Source: a virus
Strand: one strand, 5' to 3'
Virus record (IMG/VR): IMGVR_UViG_3300032087_003621
Coordinates: 1-64,000 of that record
Length of the DNA stretch: 64,000 nt
The notes under the pieces are model-generated. The model searched no databases, was not told the DNA's origin, and saw only the letters and a list, made by a program, of their open reading frames with translations. Positions 5,474 to 16,308 of the stretch are shown one piece after another; position 1 is the first letter of the stretch, and each line of letters starts with the position of its first letter. The position numbers and the translations under genes are program-made.

Positions 5474-5611
5474 TGGAATACATTTTGATAGGTGTTCTAA
5501 TTACTTTTGGTTCATGGGTCGGTACTAAGATTGTTGATATTATCGAACCAAAAGAAACAATCGAAATTCGAGAAGAACATTTACAATGTGTTATTGTAGT
5601 TGAAGAAGAAG

Positions 5612-6127
5612 ATGAAGAATAAAAGTTTTGATGTAAGCGAAGACTCTGCTATCACTATACCGCTTCGTAATTTGATTGGATTAATTATCACAGCGGGCAT
5701 TGTTGTGATGGGTTATTTCCAACTGGTAGAACGCATCACTTTTCTCGAGCGAGACTTGACCTTGGCAAGTCAATATATTGAACAGAACTCTCATTTTAGA
5801 CAGAAGTGGCCTCTTGGAGAGTTAGGTGCATTGCCCGATGATATGATTCAGAACAGTAAGATTCAAGCACTCGAAAAAGTGGTTGAGGTTAATACTGAAT
5901 TCCGAAACAACTGGGCACCACCTGAAGAGGTACAACAATCAGTTAAGATAAATAATGAACAAGAGATAAAGATAAAGTATCTTGAAACTCGTATTCAGTT
6001 GTTAGAGACGCAGCTGAAAGATTTCAATAGAATGGAAATTACACAATCTCGTCACGAATCTGAGATTGAAACTCAAGCCGAGAAGATTGAAACATTATTC
6101 GATCTTTGGAACAATAAGAGCAACTAA
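5612..6127 (+). CDS. TM-anchored coiled-coil protein
   Basis: N-terminal TM (LIGLIITAGIVVMGYF) followed by heptads. Confidence 0.55.
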   Translation: MKNKSFDVSEDSAITIPLRNLIGLIITAGIVVMGYFQLVERITFLERDLTLASQYIEQNSHFRQKWPLGELGALPDDMIQNSKIQALEKVVEVNTEFRNNWAPPEEVQQSVKINNEQEIKIKYLETRIQLLETQLKDFNRMEITQSRHESEIETQAEKIETLFDLWNNKSN

Positions 6128-7680
6128 TGGCGCAGTTTGATACCAATAAACAGACGCTGAACCGAAATAACAATGTGTTATACGAAGTTCAGATGGTCGC
6201 AGACCAATATGGTCGTATTCACAACGAAGGTGCGACTTCACGATCTGCTTTTGGTGAGAATATTTCTATTCCGGTCAATCCAGTTTTTCAATTGGATGGA
6301 CTTTACGGATTAGATCCACAACTGTTTGAAACCTTTACCGGCACCTTTACCGGAAATCCAGGCACCGCAACTACCACTGACACATTGATGCAAGTGACAA
6401 CTGATGCGACCGGTATTGGTTCCTATGGGGTTATTCGTTCTCGACGTGCTGTTAGATATCGTCCCGGCCAAGGTGCACTGGGAAGATTCACCGCAAAGTT
6501 TAGTACTGGTGTTGCTGGGTATACACAACGTGCGGGTTTCTTTACACAAGAACAAGCAGTTCAGGTTGGTTATGATGGAACATCGTTTGGTGTTCTGAGA
6601 CAGAACGGCGGTAAAGCACATATTGAAATTCTCACTGTAACTGCCACTGCAACTGAAACTGTACAGGTAGAACTGGACGGTGTTAGCACTGGAGTAGCAA
6701 TTCTTTCTACTGATACTAATCAAGAAGCGGCAGTAAAAATTGCAGATGCTTTTGCGGGTAATGCTAGTTGGATTGTTGAAACTTACGACGATAAAGTTTG
6801 TTTCTTGGCAACAAGTGTTGGTCCCAAAGCAGGTGCTTTTAGTTACACTGGTACTTCTGCTACACTTACTACTCAACAAACAGGTGTGGCACACACGGAT
6901 CTATGGACTCCTCAAGCAGAATTTAATCAAGACACTTTAGATGGAAATGGTCCATCCAAAGTTACTATCGACCCACAGAAACTCAATGTGTATCAAATCA
7001 ACTTCCGTTGGTTGGGCGCTGGAGAGATTCGTTATGCTATCGAGAATCCCACCAATGGTGATATGATTCATTTTCATCACGAGCATTATAGTAACCGTAA
7101 CACTGATGTTCACATCGATAACCCTTCTCTGAAAATTGGTTATGTTGCCGCATCACTGGGTGGTGATGGTACAAGTATTGTGGTTGAAGGTGCGTCGATG
7201 ATGGGTGCTATCGAAGGACTGATCAATACTACAAAATTACCAACTGCAACTTTCCGAGAAAGTACTACTAACCTAAATGCCAACACTTGGTATCACGTTT
7301 TAACAGCGGCCAATAATAGAGTGTTTAGAAACAAAATCAACACAAGAGAAATAATATTAAAAAATATTAATTGCGCTTTTAGTGGTACTGGTCCTGTTAC
7401 AGTTGCTCTAATTCTAAACCCAACAGGAGTAGCAGACACCAGAGAGTTCAACTCTATAAACGAATTTTCTTCAGTATCCACCTCTAATACAACTTCCGTA
7501 GTGACATTGGGAGACCAAAGATTAATGTATATCTTTGATGTTGAAGCGGGTGGTTCAGGTACTCAAGTTCTAGAAGACCTTCGAATTGCAATCCCTCCAG
7601 GCAATGAAGTGTCTGTTCTGATTAGAAGTTCCCAGCAAATAACTCGTAATGCTATCTCTATGTCTTGGATTGAAGATTAA
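6127..7680 (+). CDS. Beta-rich putative virion structural protein
   Basis: 517 aa, Thr/Gly-rich. SAFGE..., RYRPGQG and WLGAGEIR motifs seen in phage structural proteins. Confidence 0.5.
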   Translation: MAQFDTNKQTLNRNNNVLYEVQMVADQYGRIHNEGATSRSAFGENISIPVNPVFQLDGLYGLDPQLFETFTGTFTGNPGTATTTDTLMQVTTDATGIGSYGVIRSRRAVRYRPGQGALGRFTAKFSTGVAGYTQRAGFFTQEQAVQVGYDGTSFGVLRQNGGKAHIEILTVTATATETVQVELDGVSTGVAILSTDTNQEAAVKIADAFAGNASWIVETYDDKVCFLATSVGPKAGAFSYTGTSATLTTQQTGVAHTDLWTPQAEFNQDTLDGNGPSKVTIDPQKLNVYQINFRWLGAGEIRYAIENPTNGDMIHFHHEHYSNRNTDVHIDNPSLKIGYVAASLGGDGTSIVVEGASMMGAIEGLINTTKLPTATFRESTTNLNANTWYHVLTAANNRVFRNKINTREIILKNINCAFSGTGPVTVALILNPTGVADTREFNSINEFSSVSTSNTTSVVTLGDQRLMYIFDVEAGGSGTQVLEDLRIAIPPGNEVSVLIRSSQQITRNAISMSWIED

Positions 7681-7684
7681 ATCT

Positions 7685-7692
7685 TATAAATA
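7685..7692 (+). promoter_or_regulatory. T4-type late promoter
   Basis: Exact TATAAATA upstream of the secreted-protein cluster. Confidence 0.8.
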
Positions 7693-7714
7693 TACCTGAC
7701 ATTATAACTAGGAT

Positions 7715-8278
7715 ATGGTAATGCGATACTTACTATTCTTTGTTATGGCTTTCTGTGCGAGTGTGACATTTGGACAAGAAGTGACACCCCCTGATGACAC
7801 GATTCGAACTGAATCAATCACAGATAGCAATGTGAATACAAACTCGACAACGACAACGACTTTAAAGTCGCCACCCGCGTCAGCTATTACTCCAACGATT
7901 AATACGTCAAACTCAGACTTATGTACGTTCGGAGTTGCTGGTGCAATTCAAACACAGATTCTAGGTATCTCGACTGGCACTCAGGTAACAGACGAGAACT
8001 GTGAACGACTCAAACTGTCTAAGACTTTGTACGATATGGGTATGAAAGTCGCAGCAGTTTCTACGATGTGTCAAGACCCAAGAGTCTTTGACGCGATGAT
8101 GATGGCTGGCACACCATGTCCGTATGACGGATTGATTGGGGAGCAAGCAAAAGCAGCATGGGTTACCAATGAAGAAGCTCAACCTGGCATGAAAGAAAAG
8201 GAAGGGATGAATGAAGGTACTAAGACGCTGCTTGGCGGTGCTGGTGTTGCTAGTTTACTCTTGTTACTCCTTATCTGA
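7715..8278 (+). CDS. Secreted Cys-containing protein with amphipathic beta-hairpin
   Basis: Signal peptide. C-TFGVAGAIQTQILGISTG-...-C hairpin, then helix, MCQD and GTPCP. Hydrophobic C-terminus. Confidence 0.65.
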   Translation: MVMRYLLFFVMAFCASVTFGQEVTPPDDTIRTESITDSNVNTNSTTTTTLKSPPASAITPTINTSNSDLCTFGVAGAIQTQILGISTGTQVTDENCERLKLSKTLYDMGMKVAAVSTMCQDPRVFDAMMMAGTPCPYDGLIGEQAKAAWVTNEEAQPGMKEKEGMNEGTKTLLGGAGVASLLLLLLI

Positions 8279-9101
8279 AGAGTTTGACACCTCACCTGTT
8301 TACGGGACAACGAACAATGCTGCACAGTTTGGTTTGAACTGGGTAATGACTCGTGTGCTCCCACAGCAGGCAGGGTTGCAGGTAAGCAATGTAGTGTATC
8401 GATACGAAGTTGAGAAGAACACTGAGGACGATATGTTGGTTCATGTGCAGAACGAAAATGCACGAGGGCCTGGTTATATTTTTCGTTCGACTGATGATTG
8501 GTCGGGTATACCAGGCAATTCAATTAACAAAGCGGTGCCTGTAGATTACATCGACATCTCTTACTGGGGTGCTGGGTCAATTGAGGTTGAGGGGTTTGGT
8601 ACGGTCAAAAATCCGGAAGTGTATTACACATATCAGTATGACCCTTGTTTTGACCCTCAGTCTAATCCTCAGTGTCCAGGCTATCAGGACCCTTTTGTGA
8701 TTGAATTAAACGAGGTCGAAGTTTATGATCCTCTTGAAGACGATGTGGTACAAGAAGAGTTGGATCGGAAAGCAAATAGGAAAGCACAAGAAGATGACGA
8801 GAAAGAAAAGGCTAGGCAAAAGGCTTTAGAGAAAGTAGAAGAAATTGAAAAGAGACTGGAGCAGTTACTCGGTATTGCTAATGAGACTGACATAGCAGGT
8901 GATGCACAACGCTTGCACGATATGTTGATGGCAATACGACAACTACCTCAGTCTTACCAAGCTCAACTGGTCGGAGGATCTTATCCGGATGGGGCAATGC
9001 CACCTGACGGAAAGATACCATCGAACAGCAGAGGATTGAGACAAGGGCTTGCTTCAGAAATGAAGCATCAAGAACTTGTCCGACTACAGTATGAAAAGTA
9101 G
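8211..9101 (+). CDS. Secreted protein: beta domain, DPC...CPGY motif and acidic coiled coil
   Basis: Signal peptide-like N-terminus. YDPCFDPQSNPQCPGY. Overlaps the upstream gene. Confidence 0.6.
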   Translation: MKVLRRCLAVLVLLVYSCYSLSEEFDTSPVYGTTNNAAQFGLNWVMTRVLPQQAGLQVSNVVYRYEVEKNTEDDMLVHVQNENARGPGYIFRSTDDWSGIPGNSINKAVPVDYIDISYWGAGSIEVEGFGTVKNPEVYYTYQYDPCFDPQSNPQCPGYQDPFVIELNEVEVYDPLEDDVVQEELDRKANRKAQEDDEKEKARQKALEKVEEIEKRLEQLLGIANETDIAGDAQRLHDMLMAIRQLPQSYQAQLVGGSYPDGAMPPDGKIPSNSRGLRQGLASEMKHQELVRLQYEK

Positions 9102-9128
9102 TAAACAAACCAAAAAGGGAGAACAGCA

Positions 9129-9632
9129 ATGTTCAATAAAACTTTTATATCATTGGCGGTACTTATGACCTTTTGTGCTAGTGCGTTTGCGGAAGAGATT
9201 CCCATTAGCGGTTCAGTGGAATCTAAGTGCATCGTAACGCAAGACACTGCGGGAGTTTACGGTAACGCATCACCCGAAGTACTCACTACGGCGAGTGCAT
9301 CTGGCGGTGTACATCCGGTTGTACGGTTTGATGTGATTCAGGCTGATTATTATATGGCTCGAATTTCTCATCCTACTTCCTTTACCGAATCTCCTGTCTT
9401 GAACGATGTCGTTACTTGGACTGGCAGCACGTCTGTTGACCAAGTTAGCGATGCCGGGATGTCTGCTTATGATACCAGTAAAGTAGAGTATGATAACGTA
9501 ACCGAAATTGACCTTTCAATCGCAGGTTCTACGTGGTTTAAAGTAGAATCAGAAGCTGATTATGGGTACAATAAGGCGTTTCCTGGCGGTCAGTACCAAG
9601 CGGTTGTAACTGCTGAGTGTATCGCAATTTAA
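9129..9632 (+). CDS. Fimbrial pilin-like protein (chaperone-usher/Csu-SCPU-like)
   Basis: Signal peptide ending ASAFA. Mature N-terminus IPISGSVESKC. C-terminus PGGQYQAVVTAEC, typical of the pilin last strand. Confidence 0.55.
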   Translation: MFNKTFISLAVLMTFCASAFAEEIPISGSVESKCIVTQDTAGVYGNASPEVLTTASASGGVHPVVRFDVIQADYYMARISHPTSFTESPVLNDVVTWTGSTSVDQVSDAGMSAYDTSKVEYDNVTEIDLSIAGSTWFKVESEADYGYNKAFPGGQYQAVVTAECIAI

Positions 9633-9642
9633 GGAAAATCAT

Positions 9643-10020
9643 ATGAAAAAGATCATGTTGTTGTTGACGTTACTAAGTGGGCAAGCCTCGCTTGCCCACG
9701 ACTTTACTCCGACGTACCCGAAGTTGGAAACAACTCATATTACGGGTGCGTTGAAGGCAAGTATGAAACTATTCAATAAGCGTGATGACATTAGGTATTA
9801 TAGGGTAAACGTTTATGACAGTGAGTGGAACAAGATTCCGTTTATTGTCCAAGGCGGGAAAGTTATTAATGTAGAGTATCTTGATACAAAGAGATTTGAT
9901 GTCTATATTCAGGAGAAGAACAGAGATAGAGTAACTTATATTTGCACTAAGTCTCTGACACTCCAAGACGGATCTACGAAATCAATTATGGCTTCGAGGA
10001 TTTGCTCGAAAGTGAAATGA
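9643..10020 (+). CDS. Single-domain fimbrial chaperone-like (PapD_N-like) secreted protein
   Basis: Signal peptide. P...MKLFNKRDDIRYYRVNVY...PFIV...INVEYLDTKRFDVYI parallels the PapD N-domain pattern. Terminal Cys pair. Confidence 0.5.
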   Translation: MKKIMLLLTLLSGQASLAHDFTPTYPKLETTHITGALKASMKLFNKRDDIRYYRVNVYDSEWNKIPFIVQGGKVINVEYLDTKRFDVYIQEKNRDRVTYICTKSLTLQDGSTKSIMASRICSKVK

Positions 10021-10469
10021 AACTTATGAGAATATTGTTATTTGTGTTGTTGTTGTTTGTATGTGACCGAGTGTATGCGGAGTCAAGTTCTTTGAACTTG
10101 GCATTACCGTCATCGCCGGGTTCATATGCATCAGACAGAGTAAGAGCGGGTAACTTAGAGTGCTCTAACGCTATCGGTGGTGCTACGGCACTAGAGTTTG
10201 GCGTTGTGGGTATTCTAAACCAAAATGGTCCGTACAATAATAGGTTCGGAAGTTCCTATACCATGCCGGACTATTACGACTCGAACGAACTTGTCAAAGA
10301 CGTTGGCGTCTATGCGAAGATTACGATTCCGCTAGACAAACCTAAAGAACGTCTTAACTGTAACACTCTCTATAAGCTGGAACTCGAAAGAAGAAGACTA
10401 GAGATACAAAGATTACAAGCAGAGGTCGCGCAGCTGCGTAATTTGCAGTTTGCTGACGATGAGGAGTAA
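10017..10469 (+). CDS. Secreted beta-hairpin/coiled-coil protein, candidate oligomeric outer-membrane pore
   Basis: Signal peptide. Strands ATALEFGVVG and DVGVYAKITIPL are bracketed by a Cys pair, followed by a C-terminal coiled coil. ATGA coupling to the upstream gene. Confidence 0.55.
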   Translation: MKLMRILLFVLLLFVCDRVYAESSSLNLALPSSPGSYASDRVRAGNLECSNAIGGATALEFGVVGILNQNGPYNNRFGSSYTMPDYYDSNELVKDVGVYAKITIPLDKPKERLNCNTLYKLELERRRLEIQRLQAEVAQLRNLQFADDEE

Positions 10470-10471
10470 AC

Positions 10472-10930
10472 ATGGCTGAAGTAGAATTTGCAGGAATGAC
10501 CTTCAAAGGTGGGAAGATGATGATTCTTCTCACAGCATTATCCACTGCGGGTGGTGCGCTTTGGGGTGGTTTCGAATTCTATAAGGACTACATGGACATG
10601 AAGGAGATAATCCAGAATATCGATGTGGGAGAGATAGAAGCACGAAACAATGTCATCGAAACAAAACTAGATGAAGCGATTGATTACTCAAGAAGCATTA
10701 AGAACGATCTGAGAGATGACTTCAATCGGATGGAGAAGAATGTGGACAGAATCGAAGACCAGAATCGGGAAATGGAAGATAAAGTCAAAGATATGATTGA
10801 CAAGGCGACTGAACGTTTTGACAATCGTAGGGAGAGTTTACAGACAGATACAGAACTGAAAATCAAAGCGGTTGAAGATCGCTTGAATAGTAAGATTCAA
10901 ACTGCACTGGACAACCCTCTCGCTGACTAG
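10472..10930 (+). CDS. Inner-membrane-anchored coiled-coil protein
   Basis: N-terminal TM (ILLTALSTAGGALWGGF) followed by long heptad repeats. Confidence 0.6.
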   Translation: MAEVEFAGMTFKGGKMMILLTALSTAGGALWGGFEFYKDYMDMKEIIQNIDVGEIEARNNVIETKLDEAIDYSRSIKNDLRDDFNRMEKNVDRIEDQNREMEDKVKDMIDKATERFDNRRESLQTDTELKIKAVEDRLNSKIQTALDNPLAD

Positions 10931-10948
10931 GATAGGGAGTACAGACTC

Positions 10949-11155
10949 ATGCGTGTTAAAGTAACGTTTGTTAATGGAAACACGATATATGGAAGATTGA
11001 CGGGTGAAGAAACTCACACGCTCAAATCTGAGGATGTCATTCCTTGGATTATGAACGATGATAGAATGTTCATACCTTTCATTCAACCAAGCGGTGCTGA
11101 GGTTCATTTGAACAAATCAAATATCGCTTATATCGTGTTAGATGAGGAGGAGTAA
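10949..11155 (+). CDS. DUF6812-like small protein (paralog of 12059..12256)
   Basis: V.VTFVNG..IYG...MNDDRMFIPF...HLNKSNI pattern. Confidence 0.55.
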   Translation: MRVKVTFVNGNTIYGRLTGEETHTLKSEDVIPWIMNDDRMFIPFIQPSGAEVHLNKSNIAYIVLDEEE

Positions 11156-11266
11156 ATGGGCTGCAGGGTTTTTGAAACCCGCGAAGTCCGATACAGTCAC
11201 CAGTTCCTTCTTATGTGCAGTATTGGACTGAACATAGGGTTGGTGTTGGGGTTTGTAGTATTCTGA
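11156..11266 (+). CDS. 36-aa membrane peptide (not in ORF track)
   Basis: GAGGAGGAG RBS. MGCRVFETREVRYSHQFLLMCSIGLNIGLVLGFVVF. Confidence 0.5.
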   Translation: MGCRVFETREVRYSHQFLLMCSIGLNIGLVLGFVVF

Positions 11267-11275
11267 CTCAGCGGG

Positions 11276-11302
11276 AGGGCACCTACGGGTGCCCTTTTTT
11301 TT
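11276..11302 (+). terminator. Rho-independent terminator
   Basis: AGGGCACC-TACG-GGTGCCCT followed by a T-run, between convergent genes. Confidence 0.85.
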
Positions 11303-11708: not shown

Positions 11709-12047
11709 ATGAGATACTTAATCATAGTAATTGGCGTCTTGTGTTTATTAGCTACTTGTTCAGTCAAAGCAAGTCCCTATATAGAAATCAAATCAGAACA
11801 TGTCTTCAAAGACTTTGCTTCTACTGACGCAGTACACCACACTCGTTTCGGTTATGAGAAAAAATCACTCACTGGCAACAAGATTTACTTTGAAGGTGGA
11901 CACATGACAGGTGGTTCGTCTTGGGAAGCAGGATATAAGACTCGTTTGTCTGACACGCTTATTGTCAAGGGTAAACTCGAAGGCAAACGTGAACGAGGTA
12001 AAGAAGCAAAGACTAAACTCGAAACTGAGATTCGATTTACTTGGTGA
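11709..12047 (+). CDS. Small outer-membrane beta-barrel protein
   Basis: Signal peptide, alternating amphipathic strands (RFGYE, IYFEGG, WEAGYK) and a C-terminal beta-signal ETEIRFTW. Confidence 0.65.
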   Translation: MRYLIIVIGVLCLLATCSVKASPYIEIKSEHVFKDFASTDAVHHTRFGYEKKSLTGNKIYFEGGHMTGGSSWEAGYKTRLSDTLIVKGKLEGKRERGKEAKTKLETEIRFTW

Positions 12048-12058
12048 CTATATAAAGT

Positions 12059-12256
12059 ATGGAAACCTTTAGAATAGTGAAAGTTATAGTATCGTTATCG
12101 GACGGGACTCGTTGGCTTGATTGTGAAATCTATTTACCAACGGGTTCACGTTTGTCTGATGTCATGAATGATGAAAGAAAATTCTTGCCTATTAAAAGAG
12201 AAGGTAAAGAAATTGTAGTGCATAAAGATAAAGTAGTATTTTTAACTGAATCTTAA
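12059..12256 (+). CDS. DUF6812-like small protein
   Basis: LSDG...IYLPTGSRLSDVMNDERKFLPI...VVHKDKV. Confidence 0.6.
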   Translation: METFRIVKVIVSLSDGTRWLDCEIYLPTGSRLSDVMNDERKFLPIKREGKEIVVHKDKVVFLTES

Positions 12257-15176: not shown

Positions 15177-15337
15177 AGACATTTAAACAATTCACAGAAA
15201 CAATGACAACAAGTTCTGGTATTGCTGGACTTCCACCTGATGACCCACCCGGCCCTCGAAAGAAGAAGAAAAAATATAAAGTATTAACTCGTGGATATAT
15301 AGAAGTAGCAGGGAAAAGAAAAAGAGTTGTAAAATAA
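15173..15337 (+). CDS. 54-aa basic protein with capsid-targeting-like N-terminus (not in ORF track)
   Basis: GTG start after GGAG. MKTFKQFTE...IAGLPPDDPP...KKKKK. Confidence 0.6.
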   Translation: MKTFKQFTETMTTSSGIAGLPPDDPPGPRKKKKKYKVLTRGYIEVAGKRKRVVK

Positions 15338-15795
15338 TGCCATACATCATATTATTATTTGTTATTGTTCTTGGTGGAGGATTTGCTTATCACCAAGTGA
15401 CTGTTTCTAATCTAGAGGCAGCGAAAGCACAACTAGAGGCAAACAACCGCACCTTGAAAGAGAATCAGGTGCAGATGGAAAAAGCAGTGGAAACTGCACA
15501 AGCGTCACTTGCTGCAGCGGAAGCAAATGCAAAGAAATCAGAGGCGGCAATGTCTGCACTCACCGCAAGGAATAATGAGTTACAGCGAGAGAAAGATAAT
15601 GCTATGAAGATCTTTAAAGATCACAACTTAACGAGACTTGCTCGTGCGAAGCCAGGGATGATTGAAAAACGCATGAACGCTAAAACAGAACAAGTCTTTC
15701 GAGACCTAGAAAATGATACGAAAGAACTTATGGATGCTGATGATACTCCTGACCCTACAGGGGTGTCAGATGCTGAAGGCAGTGGGACCAGTTAA
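15337..15795 (+). CDS. Putative i-spanin (Rz-like)
   Basis: N-terminal TM plus long Ala-rich coiled coil, followed by lipoprotein genes. Confidence 0.65.
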   Translation: MPYIILLFVIVLGGGFAYHQVTVSNLEAAKAQLEANNRTLKENQVQMEKAVETAQASLAAAEANAKKSEAAMSALTARNNELQREKDNAMKIFKDHNLTRLARAKPGMIEKRMNAKTEQVFRDLENDTKELMDADDTPDPTGVSDAEGSGTS

Positions 15796-15898
15796 ATATA
15801 ATTCACCATGCGGAAGACAAGTCATGGTATGTGAACAGTGGGGAAGTAAAAAATTATGTACATGTGTAAACCGATCATCTATCTCTCGCTCGCTTTAA
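15713..15898 (+). CDS. Possible overlapping Cys-rich lipoprotein
   Basis: Basic N-terminus, hydrophobic core and LQGC lipobox. Overlaps both neighbours. Confidence 0.4.
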   Translation: MIRKNLWMLMILLTLQGCQMLKAVGPVKYNSPCGRQVMVCEQWGSKKLCTCVNRSSISRSL

Positions 15899-16308
15899 CA
15901 GCGGGATGTTCTTGGATGCCTCGCCTTGAGTGGGGACCAGAACCAGAAATTATTCCACCAGAACCCCAAATTATAACAGTGACGGAGAAGGTTCCTCTGC
16001 GAATCTATCAACCGCCGTTACCACAGGAGATTGACCTTCTTAACGTAAACTTCTTCGTCATCACTGAAGAGAACTATGAAGAGAAGAAGAAAGAAGTTGA
16101 GAAGATTCTTGACGGCAATTTCGTGGTGTTTGCTTTGACACCCGATGGCTATGAGAAAATGGCAGAGAACTTCCAAGAAGTTCGCCGTTATGTGAGGCAA
16201 CAGAAAGAACTCATCATTTACTATCGTGAAGCGACAACCGAATCAGAAGGTACTACTGCCGAAGATTGGTTAGAAAACAATGAGCCAAACAGTCAAACTT
16301 CTAATTGA
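15856..16308 (+). CDS. Putative o-spanin (Rz1-like lipoprotein)
   Basis: LTAGC lipobox, Pro-rich segment, ALTPDGYEKMAEN..EVRRYVRQQKELIIYY. Confidence 0.7.
   Translation: MYMCKPIIYLSLALTAGCSWMPRLEWGPEPEIIPPEPQIITVTEKVPLRIYQPPLPQEIDLLNVNFFVITEENYEEKKKEVEKILDGNFVVFALTPDGYEKMAENFQEVRRYVRQQKELIIYYREATTESEGTTAEDWLENNEPNSQTSN

Follow-up and report, generated by a model that had tools for sequence, protein, structure and literature searches.

The first 64,000 nucleotides (positions 1 to 64,000; hereafter the window) of the IMG/VR virus record IMGVR_UViG_3300032087_003621 contain a cassette of six tightly coupled genes, g1 to g6, whose products are probably directed to the envelope of the infected host cell. 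The complete record, that of a marine T4-like phage, comprises 146,377 bp with a G+C content of 39.6% and an estimated completeness of ~85%, and it carries genes for a T4-type baseplate, a ribonucleotide reductase and a tail lysozyme. On the plus strand, the cassette is part of a compact unit (7685-11298) that consists of a promoter motif, g1 to g6, a further small gene (g7), and a terminator. The T4-type late promoter motif TATAAATA (7685..7692) was read directly in the sequence; it sits in the 34-nt gap between the stop codon (7680) of an upstream gene for a 517-amino-acid virion protein and g1. In the 146-kb genome, the motif is present 20 times on the plus strand and once on the minus strand (~11 copies are expected per strand), and its copies lie mostly just 5' of genes. 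It is also retained 30-46 nt 5' of g1 in six related loci (L001, L005, L007, L009, L011, L013). The g1 and g2 reading frames overlap by 68 nt, and the remaining gaps between successive genes of the cassette amount to only 27, 10, 5 and 2 nt, respectively. A strong intrinsic terminator, an 11-bp stem with six G-C pairs followed by a T run, is located at 11273..11298. This arrangement has the features of a T4-type late transcription unit, its presumed late timing being read from the promoter motif alone.

All six genes lie on the plus strand. The g1 gene (7715..8278; 187 amino acids) probably starts at 7721 (MRY...) rather than at 7715, as judged from the Shine-Dalgarno spacing and from its homologues; its product consists of a signal peptide, a Thr/Ser-rich linker, an invariant domain with four Cys residues (C70, C96, C119, C135), and a hydrophobic C-terminal tail of ~17 residues. 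The g2 protein (8211..9101; 296 amino acids) starts with a signal peptide; its N-terminal half is rich in beta structure and includes the C146-C155 loop, while an acidic coiled region and, at the C-terminus, a conserved block make up the remainder. Following a signal peptide, g3 (9129..9632; 167 amino acids) is predicted to form an acidic immunoglobulin (Ig)-like beta-sandwich that is preceded by a conserved N-terminal arm, and g4 (9643..10020; 125 amino acids) likewise combines a signal peptide with what is predicted to be a basic, single-domain Ig protein of the PapD/MSP fold. In g5 (10026..10469; 147 amino acids), the signal peptide is followed by a conserved mature N-terminus (SSSLNLALP), a beta-hairpin with C46 and C112 on its two sides, and, at the C-terminus, ~30 residues of coiled coil. 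Finally, g6 (10472..10930; 152 amino acids) has a short cytoplasmic N-terminus, a single membrane span in the N-in orientation, and a periplasmic coiled coil, and it ends in the invariant motif LDNPL.

The signal peptides of g1 to g5 were judged with a heuristic of our own, not with SignalP, using 13 sequences for each protein. All five exhibit a basic n-region, a hydrophobic core (9-residue Kyte-Doolittle means between 2.4 and 4.1) and a small-x-small cleavage site, and for each protein 12 diverse homologues share these features. The cleavage sites directly precede conserved mature N-termini (QE or EE in g1, EE in g2 and g3, H-[DEQ] in g4, and [EQD]SSSLNL in g5). In addition to the four Cys residues of g1, invariant Cys pairs are present in g2 (C146/C155), g3 (C34/C164), g4 (C101/C121) and g5 (C46/C112); both the signal peptides and the Cys pairs are conserved among homologues of 35-95% identity. 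Together, these features argue for Sec-mediated export of g1 to g5. The late promoter, the six coupled genes, the five Sec-type signals with their Cys pairs, and the single membrane anchor, all of which an initial annotation of the window had listed, are indeed present in the sequence.

An entirely different interpretation of the same N-termini would hold that the six products are virion or assembly proteins whose hydrophobic N-terminal segments are not export signals. The cassette does adjoin structural genes, g6 weakly matches a PHROG annotated as a virion structural protein (E 0.018), and homologues in the Pelagibacter podovirus HTVC115P (see below) are located within the structural block of that phage. 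However, five independent conserved signal peptides, each with a cleavage motif and then a conserved mature N-terminus, are difficult to reconcile with this proposal; the invariant Cys pairs suit the oxidizing periplasm, and the virions of tailed phages are assembled in the cytoplasm. We therefore regard a role of the six proteins in the virion as extremely improbable.

Searches of Pfam, NCBIfam and PADLOC with all six proteins returned nothing significant, those of PHROGs yielded only families of unknown function as significant matches, and profile searches of PDB sequences (profiles A1 to A5) gave nothing below E 0.2. Among the PHROG matches is that of g1 to phrog_20531 (2e-13). The four-Cys domain of g1 is also found in exported proteins of Pelagibacter and Roseobacter phages, with a weaker partial match in a Ralstonia phage, and its longer fused forms contain no consistent additional Pfam domain (two of the 120 listed carry any, and these belong to unrelated families). 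Queries of the ESM Atlas with g2 and g5 produced either no match or only clusters of viral hypothetical proteins. In g2, a conserved Cys ends the core of the signal peptide, and its surroundings are lipobox-like in many homologues (LLAC, LLGC); the corresponding motif is non-canonical in this window, and a classification of g2 as a clear lipoprotein was therefore rejected. The only good lipobox in the genome belongs to a reading frame outside the window (130745-131167) whose product combines the lipoprotein signal LVSGC with a CxxCH haem motif; its neighbours are peroxiredoxin-like and serine hydroxymethyltransferase-like genes, and the group resembles an auxiliary metabolic cluster. Because of the haem c motif, and as read from the sequence only, this protein is probably of the cytochrome c type, and it was set aside.

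The initial annotation had proposed to examine whether the gene neighbourhood is conserved, and among phages this is the case. A first scan of IMG/VR with g3 retrieved 35 loci, in which the six genes follow each other in the same order wherever the contig is uncut, down to identities of 34-50%; further scans with g5 and g1 raised the total to 192 phage loci. The six genes are present in order in 159 of these, and all the others but one are cut by contig ends. This sole exception (L212) possesses g1 and g6 and is devoid of g3 to g5. In one locus (L052), the order is g1, g2, g6, g3, g4, g5, so that g6 lies between g2 and g3 and each gene trio stays together. In one branch of the family, an additional protein of ~155 amino acids is encoded between g5 and g6 (L012, 7329-7805; also L015 and L019); it is helical and carries a C-terminal membrane span, and 22 loci have it inside the module. 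The upstream virion protein gene accompanies the cassette in 16 of the 122 loci with sufficient upstream flank; the flanking genes thus vary among the loci, and the cassette behaves as a discrete unit.

More than 1600 unnamed clusters of g3 homologues at 90% identity were found in marine metagenomes, on contigs of up to 197 kb, and these collapse into 110 clusters at 50% identity; the g3 family is hence abundant but narrow. A look-up of the clusters for homologues held at NCBI provided no names, and we found no description of the module in the literature. When 185,579 species genomes were scanned, no copy of the cassette on a bacterial chromosome was detected; the only matches were to eight short contigs of metagenome-assembled genomes with mixed taxonomy, which look like mis-binned phage DNA. 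The cassette is real, common in uncultured phages, and phage-specific.

The relationship of the cassette to cultured phages was not apparent from g3, as tblastn with it matched none of 50,697 phage records, even when an E value of 1 was allowed and a divergent family member served as the query. The route to a cultured relative was provided by g5, for which tblastn reported weak matches (E 0.2) to 64 T5-like Vibrio phages. In one of these, pVp-1, the gene matched by g5 (gp079) is preceded by gp077 and gp078, and profile comparisons with hhalign matched g3 to gp077 over the full length (probability 92%, E 6e-7), g4 to gp078 (probability 92%, E 6e-7), and g5 to gp079 (probability 97.8%, E 7e-13). 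With three collinear matches, the homology of the g3-g4-g5 trio is secure; searches of pVp-1 for g1 and g6 found neither.

The complementary set is found elsewhere. HTVC115P encodes a homologue of g1 (gp54), the product of an overlapping gene (gp53), which in its C-terminal part is similar to the corresponding half of g2 (E 2e-5), and a clear homologue of g6 (gp49; E 8e-32). Homologues of g1 and g6 are also present in the Roseobacter phage CRP-810, where gp51 is the g6-type protein, and in the Pelagibacter myovirus Mosig. In none of HTVC115P, CRP-810, Mosig and the L212 locus was g3, g4 or g5 found. These sequence comparisons show that the cassette is a fusion of two older sets, termed here set A (g1, g2, g6) and set B (g3, g4, g5). 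Such a fusion of two trios with separate histories had not been foreseen when the locus was first read as a fimbrial export module. Two observations concern relatives of set A. The CRP-810 gp51 gene (L038, 5219-5641) is listed in its record as a lysozyme gene; its product is a g6-type membrane-anchored coiled-coil protein ending in NPLGR, and the annotation looks wrong. In the window, a 175-amino-acid protein that combines a membrane span at its N-terminus with a coiled coil (5600-6127) matches phrog_20984, a family that includes HTVC115P gp52, which adjoins the g1- and g2-like genes of that phage; this protein might be loosely associated with set A as a seventh partner.

In pVp-1, the trio directly follows the large tail-type genes gp074-076 and precedes the holin and endolysin genes, a position that bears on two further explanations of the cassette. 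According to the first of these, the six proteins serve as lysis accessories that tune or aid the breakdown of the envelope, for example by periplasmic control of the holin, endolysin or spanin, or by the loosening of links to the outer membrane. The proximity to the holin and endolysin genes fits such a role, as does the late timing, and g6 shares with the 5600-6127 protein the layout of an i-spanin, namely an N-in anchor and a periplasmic coiled coil, known from the late-expressed two-component spanins (Rz/Rz1, T4 PseT.3/PseT.2); moreover, in 15 of 125 loci the 7 kb that follow the cassette include a spanin pair. Unlike spanins, g6 has neither a small lipoprotein partner of the o-spanin type nor a match to a spanin profile (no spanin PHROG), and none of the six proteins matches a lysis family. 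Furthermore, both genomes already possess a spanin pair of their own, gp071/072 in pVp-1 and, in the window, a canonical pair 4.4 kb downstream of the cassette: an i-spanin (15337-15795; phrog_739, E 1.7e-11) and an o-spanin with the lipobox LTAGC (15856-16308; phrog_812, E 2e-12), whose genes are 60 nt apart and do not overlap. The identification of the module itself as a spanin was rejected for this reason, and an accessory role in lysis is, in our view, distinctly unlikely.

The second explanation invokes receptor masking: the late exported proteins would bind or cover a receptor in the host envelope and in this way prevent the loss of progeny on debris and block superinfection. Phages commonly export proteins for exclusion, and Llp of phage T5 acts in such a manner on FhuA. 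Like the exclusion and receptor-blocking proteins of the T5 Llp, T4 Sp/Imm, and lambda Lom/Bor type, the members of the cassette are phage-encoded, envelope-bound according to their sequence features, and located near tail or lysis genes, as is the case for the trio in pVp-1 between gp074-076 and the holin/endolysin genes; in the window, the cassette comes after a gene for a virion structural protein, and genes in its neighbourhood encode other envelope proteins. One of these is an exported 112-amino-acid protein (11709-12047) that matches the Pfam family PF24653 (Phage_OMP, a cyanophage outer-membrane-protein-like beta-barrel; E 5e-8, above the family cut-off), and related small barrel-like genes are found 3' of the cassette in 16-18 other loci. 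However, the known proteins are single, small and mostly encoded by early genes, in contrast to six late partners, a number that seems large for the coverage of one receptor, and the same trio is present in phages whose receptors probably differ. Neither in sequence nor in fold was the cassette linked to known exclusion proteins, nor did PADLOC assign any known defence or exclusion family, its coiled-coil matches being weak and non-significant. Receptor masking and exclusion appear to be an unlikely purpose of the cassette. The idea of polysaccharide export tied to a glycan island was discarded, as phages that lack such an island carry the cassette too.

Clues to what set B may do come from the structures predicted for g4 and g3. 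The AlphaFold2 (AF2) monomer model of g4 has a mean predicted local distance difference test (pLDDT) score of 80 and shows one domain for a mature protein of ~105 amino acids. The best Foldseek matches of this model are to the pilus chaperones FaeE, PapD, DraB, Caf1M and FimC and to MSP/VAP domains (VAP-A), all with a probability of 1.00 and E values between 5e-4 and 4e-3. An exhaustive structural search with VIA gave Z scores of 9.2 for FimC, 9.2 for MOSPD2, 9.1 for SafB, 8.5 for YadV, 8.2 for CfaA, 8.2 for CupB2, 8.0 for CsuC and 8.0 for PapD; FaeE also falls into the range of the chaperone N-domains (Z 8.0-9.2), and the MSP domains score between 8.3 and 9.2. The alignments to MOSPD2, FimC and SafB span 98-102 residues, and hence nearly the whole mature length of g4. 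Generic Ig domains score as well, with CsxA reaching a Z of 10.2. As judged from the model, g4 has the seven-strand, s-type Ig sandwich of the PapD/MSP superfamily (VAP, ASH), a match at the fold level that has no counterpart at the sequence level. Since functions are diverse within this superfamily, the fold alone does not prove that g4 acts as a chaperone. The motif KLFNKRDDIRYYRVNVYD...PFIV, from which a chaperone-like nature of g4 had originally been deduced, is present; that deduction holds with respect to the PapD/MSP-type fold, chaperone N-domains being among the best matches, but g4 has a single domain and no Pfam match. A search for longer relatives or forms of g4 had no result, an outcome that carries little weight. 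A metal site at the N-terminal His of the mature protein was considered and rejected, as this residue is missing from the pVp-1 homologue.

For g3, the AF2 monomer model (pLDDT 85, with the core above 90) depicts an all-beta sandwich with one short helix. Its least confident part is the N-terminal arm: residues 21-30 have a pLDDT of 53, and the segment 22-33 of the mature protein is modelled with low confidence yet conserved, G28 and V30 being invariant. Both motifs quoted for g3 in the initial annotation, IPISGSVESKC near the N-terminus and PGGQYQAVVTAEC as the last strand, are found in the protein. Weak Foldseek matches (E >1e-3; TM-scores of ~0.35-0.48, mostly 0.4-0.46) connect the model to CfaB, the pilin domain of PapG, and FimG, but CBM3 and SdrE match about equally well. 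An exhaustive structural search gave a best Z of 7.5 (an amylase domain, staphylococcal proteins of the SdrD/SdrG type, and plant-virus capsid domains), a value within the range that the tool calls a common arrangement. When the 1000 best chains from Foldseek were re-aligned with VIA, the top 50 did not include any chaperone-usher pilin, the pilins scoring below Z 5.7. The Pfam fimbrial, SCPU and PapD models gave no match to g3 or g4 at E<=1, and a fold search of BFVD with g3 returned nothing informative. As far as the model can tell, the sandwich of g3 is of a generic Ig-like type that is not specifically related to pilins, and its initial assignment as a chaperone-usher pilin is not borne out.

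Classical chaperone-usher fimbriae (type 1/P, class 5 CFA/I, archaic Csu) are nonetheless the known system with which the cassette invites comparison. Both rely on Sec-exported, disulfide-bonded Ig-like proteins; a basic PapD-fold protein (g4; mature isoelectric point ~9.5, the only basic one of the six) is encoded beside an acidic, subunit-like protein (g3; ~4.1, the most acidic of the six), and g3 has pilin-like strand motifs at both its N- and C-terminus. There are several differences. Chaperone-usher systems depend on an usher of ~800 amino acids (PF00577) and on a chaperone with both PapD_N and PapD_C, and every pilus chaperone known to us has two domains. As had been stated at the outset for the window, an usher is absent: PF00577 has no match in the 146-kb genome, estimated to be 85% complete, while the E. 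coli control is matched. In addition, the chaperone-like protein of the cassette has one domain, there is no match to the respective Pfam profiles, the Cys pair of g3 joins its first and last strands, and the cassette is encoded by lytic phages. The cassette is not a classical chaperone-usher fimbria system.

A true surface fimbria could still be imagined if g3 polymerized by donor-strand exchange and left the cell through a new channel, formed by g5 or g2, that replaces the usher. The alternating hydrophobic residues and the invariant Gly of the g3 arm, together with the Cys that follows, form a pattern that we take to resemble the N-termini of type 1 and P pilins; the PapD fold of g4, the weak Foldseek matches of g3 to pilins, and the amphipathic hairpin strands of g5 with the oligomerizing coil behind them point in the same direction. 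Apart from the missing usher and the poor ranking of pilins among the structural matches of g3, the proposed channel itself is problematic: the first hairpin strand of g5 is, in the pVp-1 homologue, too polar for crossing a membrane, and the cassette lacks a protein of beta-barrel size; no open reading frame of the cassette exceeds 296 amino acids in any of the 192 loci. We therefore consider a surface fimbria to be improbable.

The reading that we favour, although it stays somewhat short of an even chance, is that g3, g4 and g5 constitute a chaperone-subunit-type core within a late phage cassette that sends six proteins to the host envelope. It is consistent with the promoter motif, the tight coupling of the genes and the terminator, with the conserved export signals, Cys pairs and synteny, and with the fold of g4, the opposite isoelectric points of g3 and g4, and the conserved, poorly modelled arm of g3. 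In its specific form, which is more tentative still, g4 caps g3 and hands it over to g5. Sec export and disulfide formation would come first. The proteins of set A would then form a membrane-tethered periplasmic scaffold, made up of g6 as the inner-membrane-anchored coiled coil, g1 as the exported four-Cys protein, and g2 as a larger, possibly lipidated exported protein, while set B would be the working core. In the periplasm, the basic g4 would cap the acidic g3 through beta-strand complementation, as pilus chaperones do with their subunits, and g3 would subsequently be transferred to an oligomeric platform of g5 with its disulfide-clamped hairpin and short coiled coil. The free, conserved N-terminal arm of g3 could then mediate self-association or docking, possibly onto a target in the host envelope. 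All this would happen just before the cell lyses, either within the periplasm or on the inner side of the outer membrane. All contacts between the proteins, their locations, and the purpose of the module are what we infer from the features described above. An extension of this scheme, in which an usher-independent, minimal chaperone-subunit system, made up of the one-domain PapD-fold protein and the hairpin-coiled-coil oligomer, polymerizes the Ig-like subunit either periplasmically or at the surface of the dying host cell, appears unlikely to us.

Several points weigh against a chaperone-subunit core. Both AF2 models are monomers built from shallow alignments of 13 sequences. The sandwich of g3 is a common one without a specific fold match, so that its role as a subunit is one interpretation among others, and a C34-C164 disulfide, which would join the first and the last strand, suits a complete fold better than the open groove of a pilin. 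PapD-like folds serve unrelated roles, and MSP, ASH and glycosidase Ig domains score equally well or better with g4. Furthermore, the N-terminal His of mature g4 is invariant in the T4-like set and missing from the pVp-1 homologue, so that conserved features of this protein depend on the lineage.

Two neighbours of the cassette deserve mention. The g7 gene (10949..11155, plus strand) lies between g6 and the terminator and is apparently co-transcribed with the cassette; it encodes a 68-amino-acid protein without a signal peptide, and it is found 3' of the module in 27 of the 125 loci with sufficient downstream flank. Its membership in the module is doubtful. A paralogous protein of 65 amino acids, likewise without a signal peptide, is encoded at 12059-12256; the two share a motif that reads IMNDDRMFIPF in one and VMNDERKFLPI in the other, and no family match was found for the pair. 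On the other side of the cassette, the gene for the 517-amino-acid virion structural protein (6127-7680; phrog_1645) has ~72% nucleotide identity over ~800 nt to the Synechococcus phages S-B05 and S-B43, an unusually high value in view of the otherwise distant genomes.

What is new here is the composite origin of the cassette, the presence of homologues in cultured vibriophages, and the predicted PapD/MSP fold of g4. The action of tailed phages on the host envelope is generally attributed, in the main, to proteins for lysis and exclusion, and a cassette of six exported proteins falls outside this usual list, with parts of it being common to phages of SAR11, Roseobacter and Vibrio and to uncultured T4-like phages. 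Since pVp-1 and its relatives are in culture, the g3-g4-g5 trio is now open to experiment. If strand complementation between g3 and g4 without an usher were true, the chaperone-subunit principle would extend to viruses and to a chaperone with one domain. If, beyond this, a polymer were indeed formed, the cassette would represent a new route for the assembly of fibres or lattices by strand complementation, one that would span at least two unrelated phage families, the T4-like marine myoviruses and the T5-like vibriophages.

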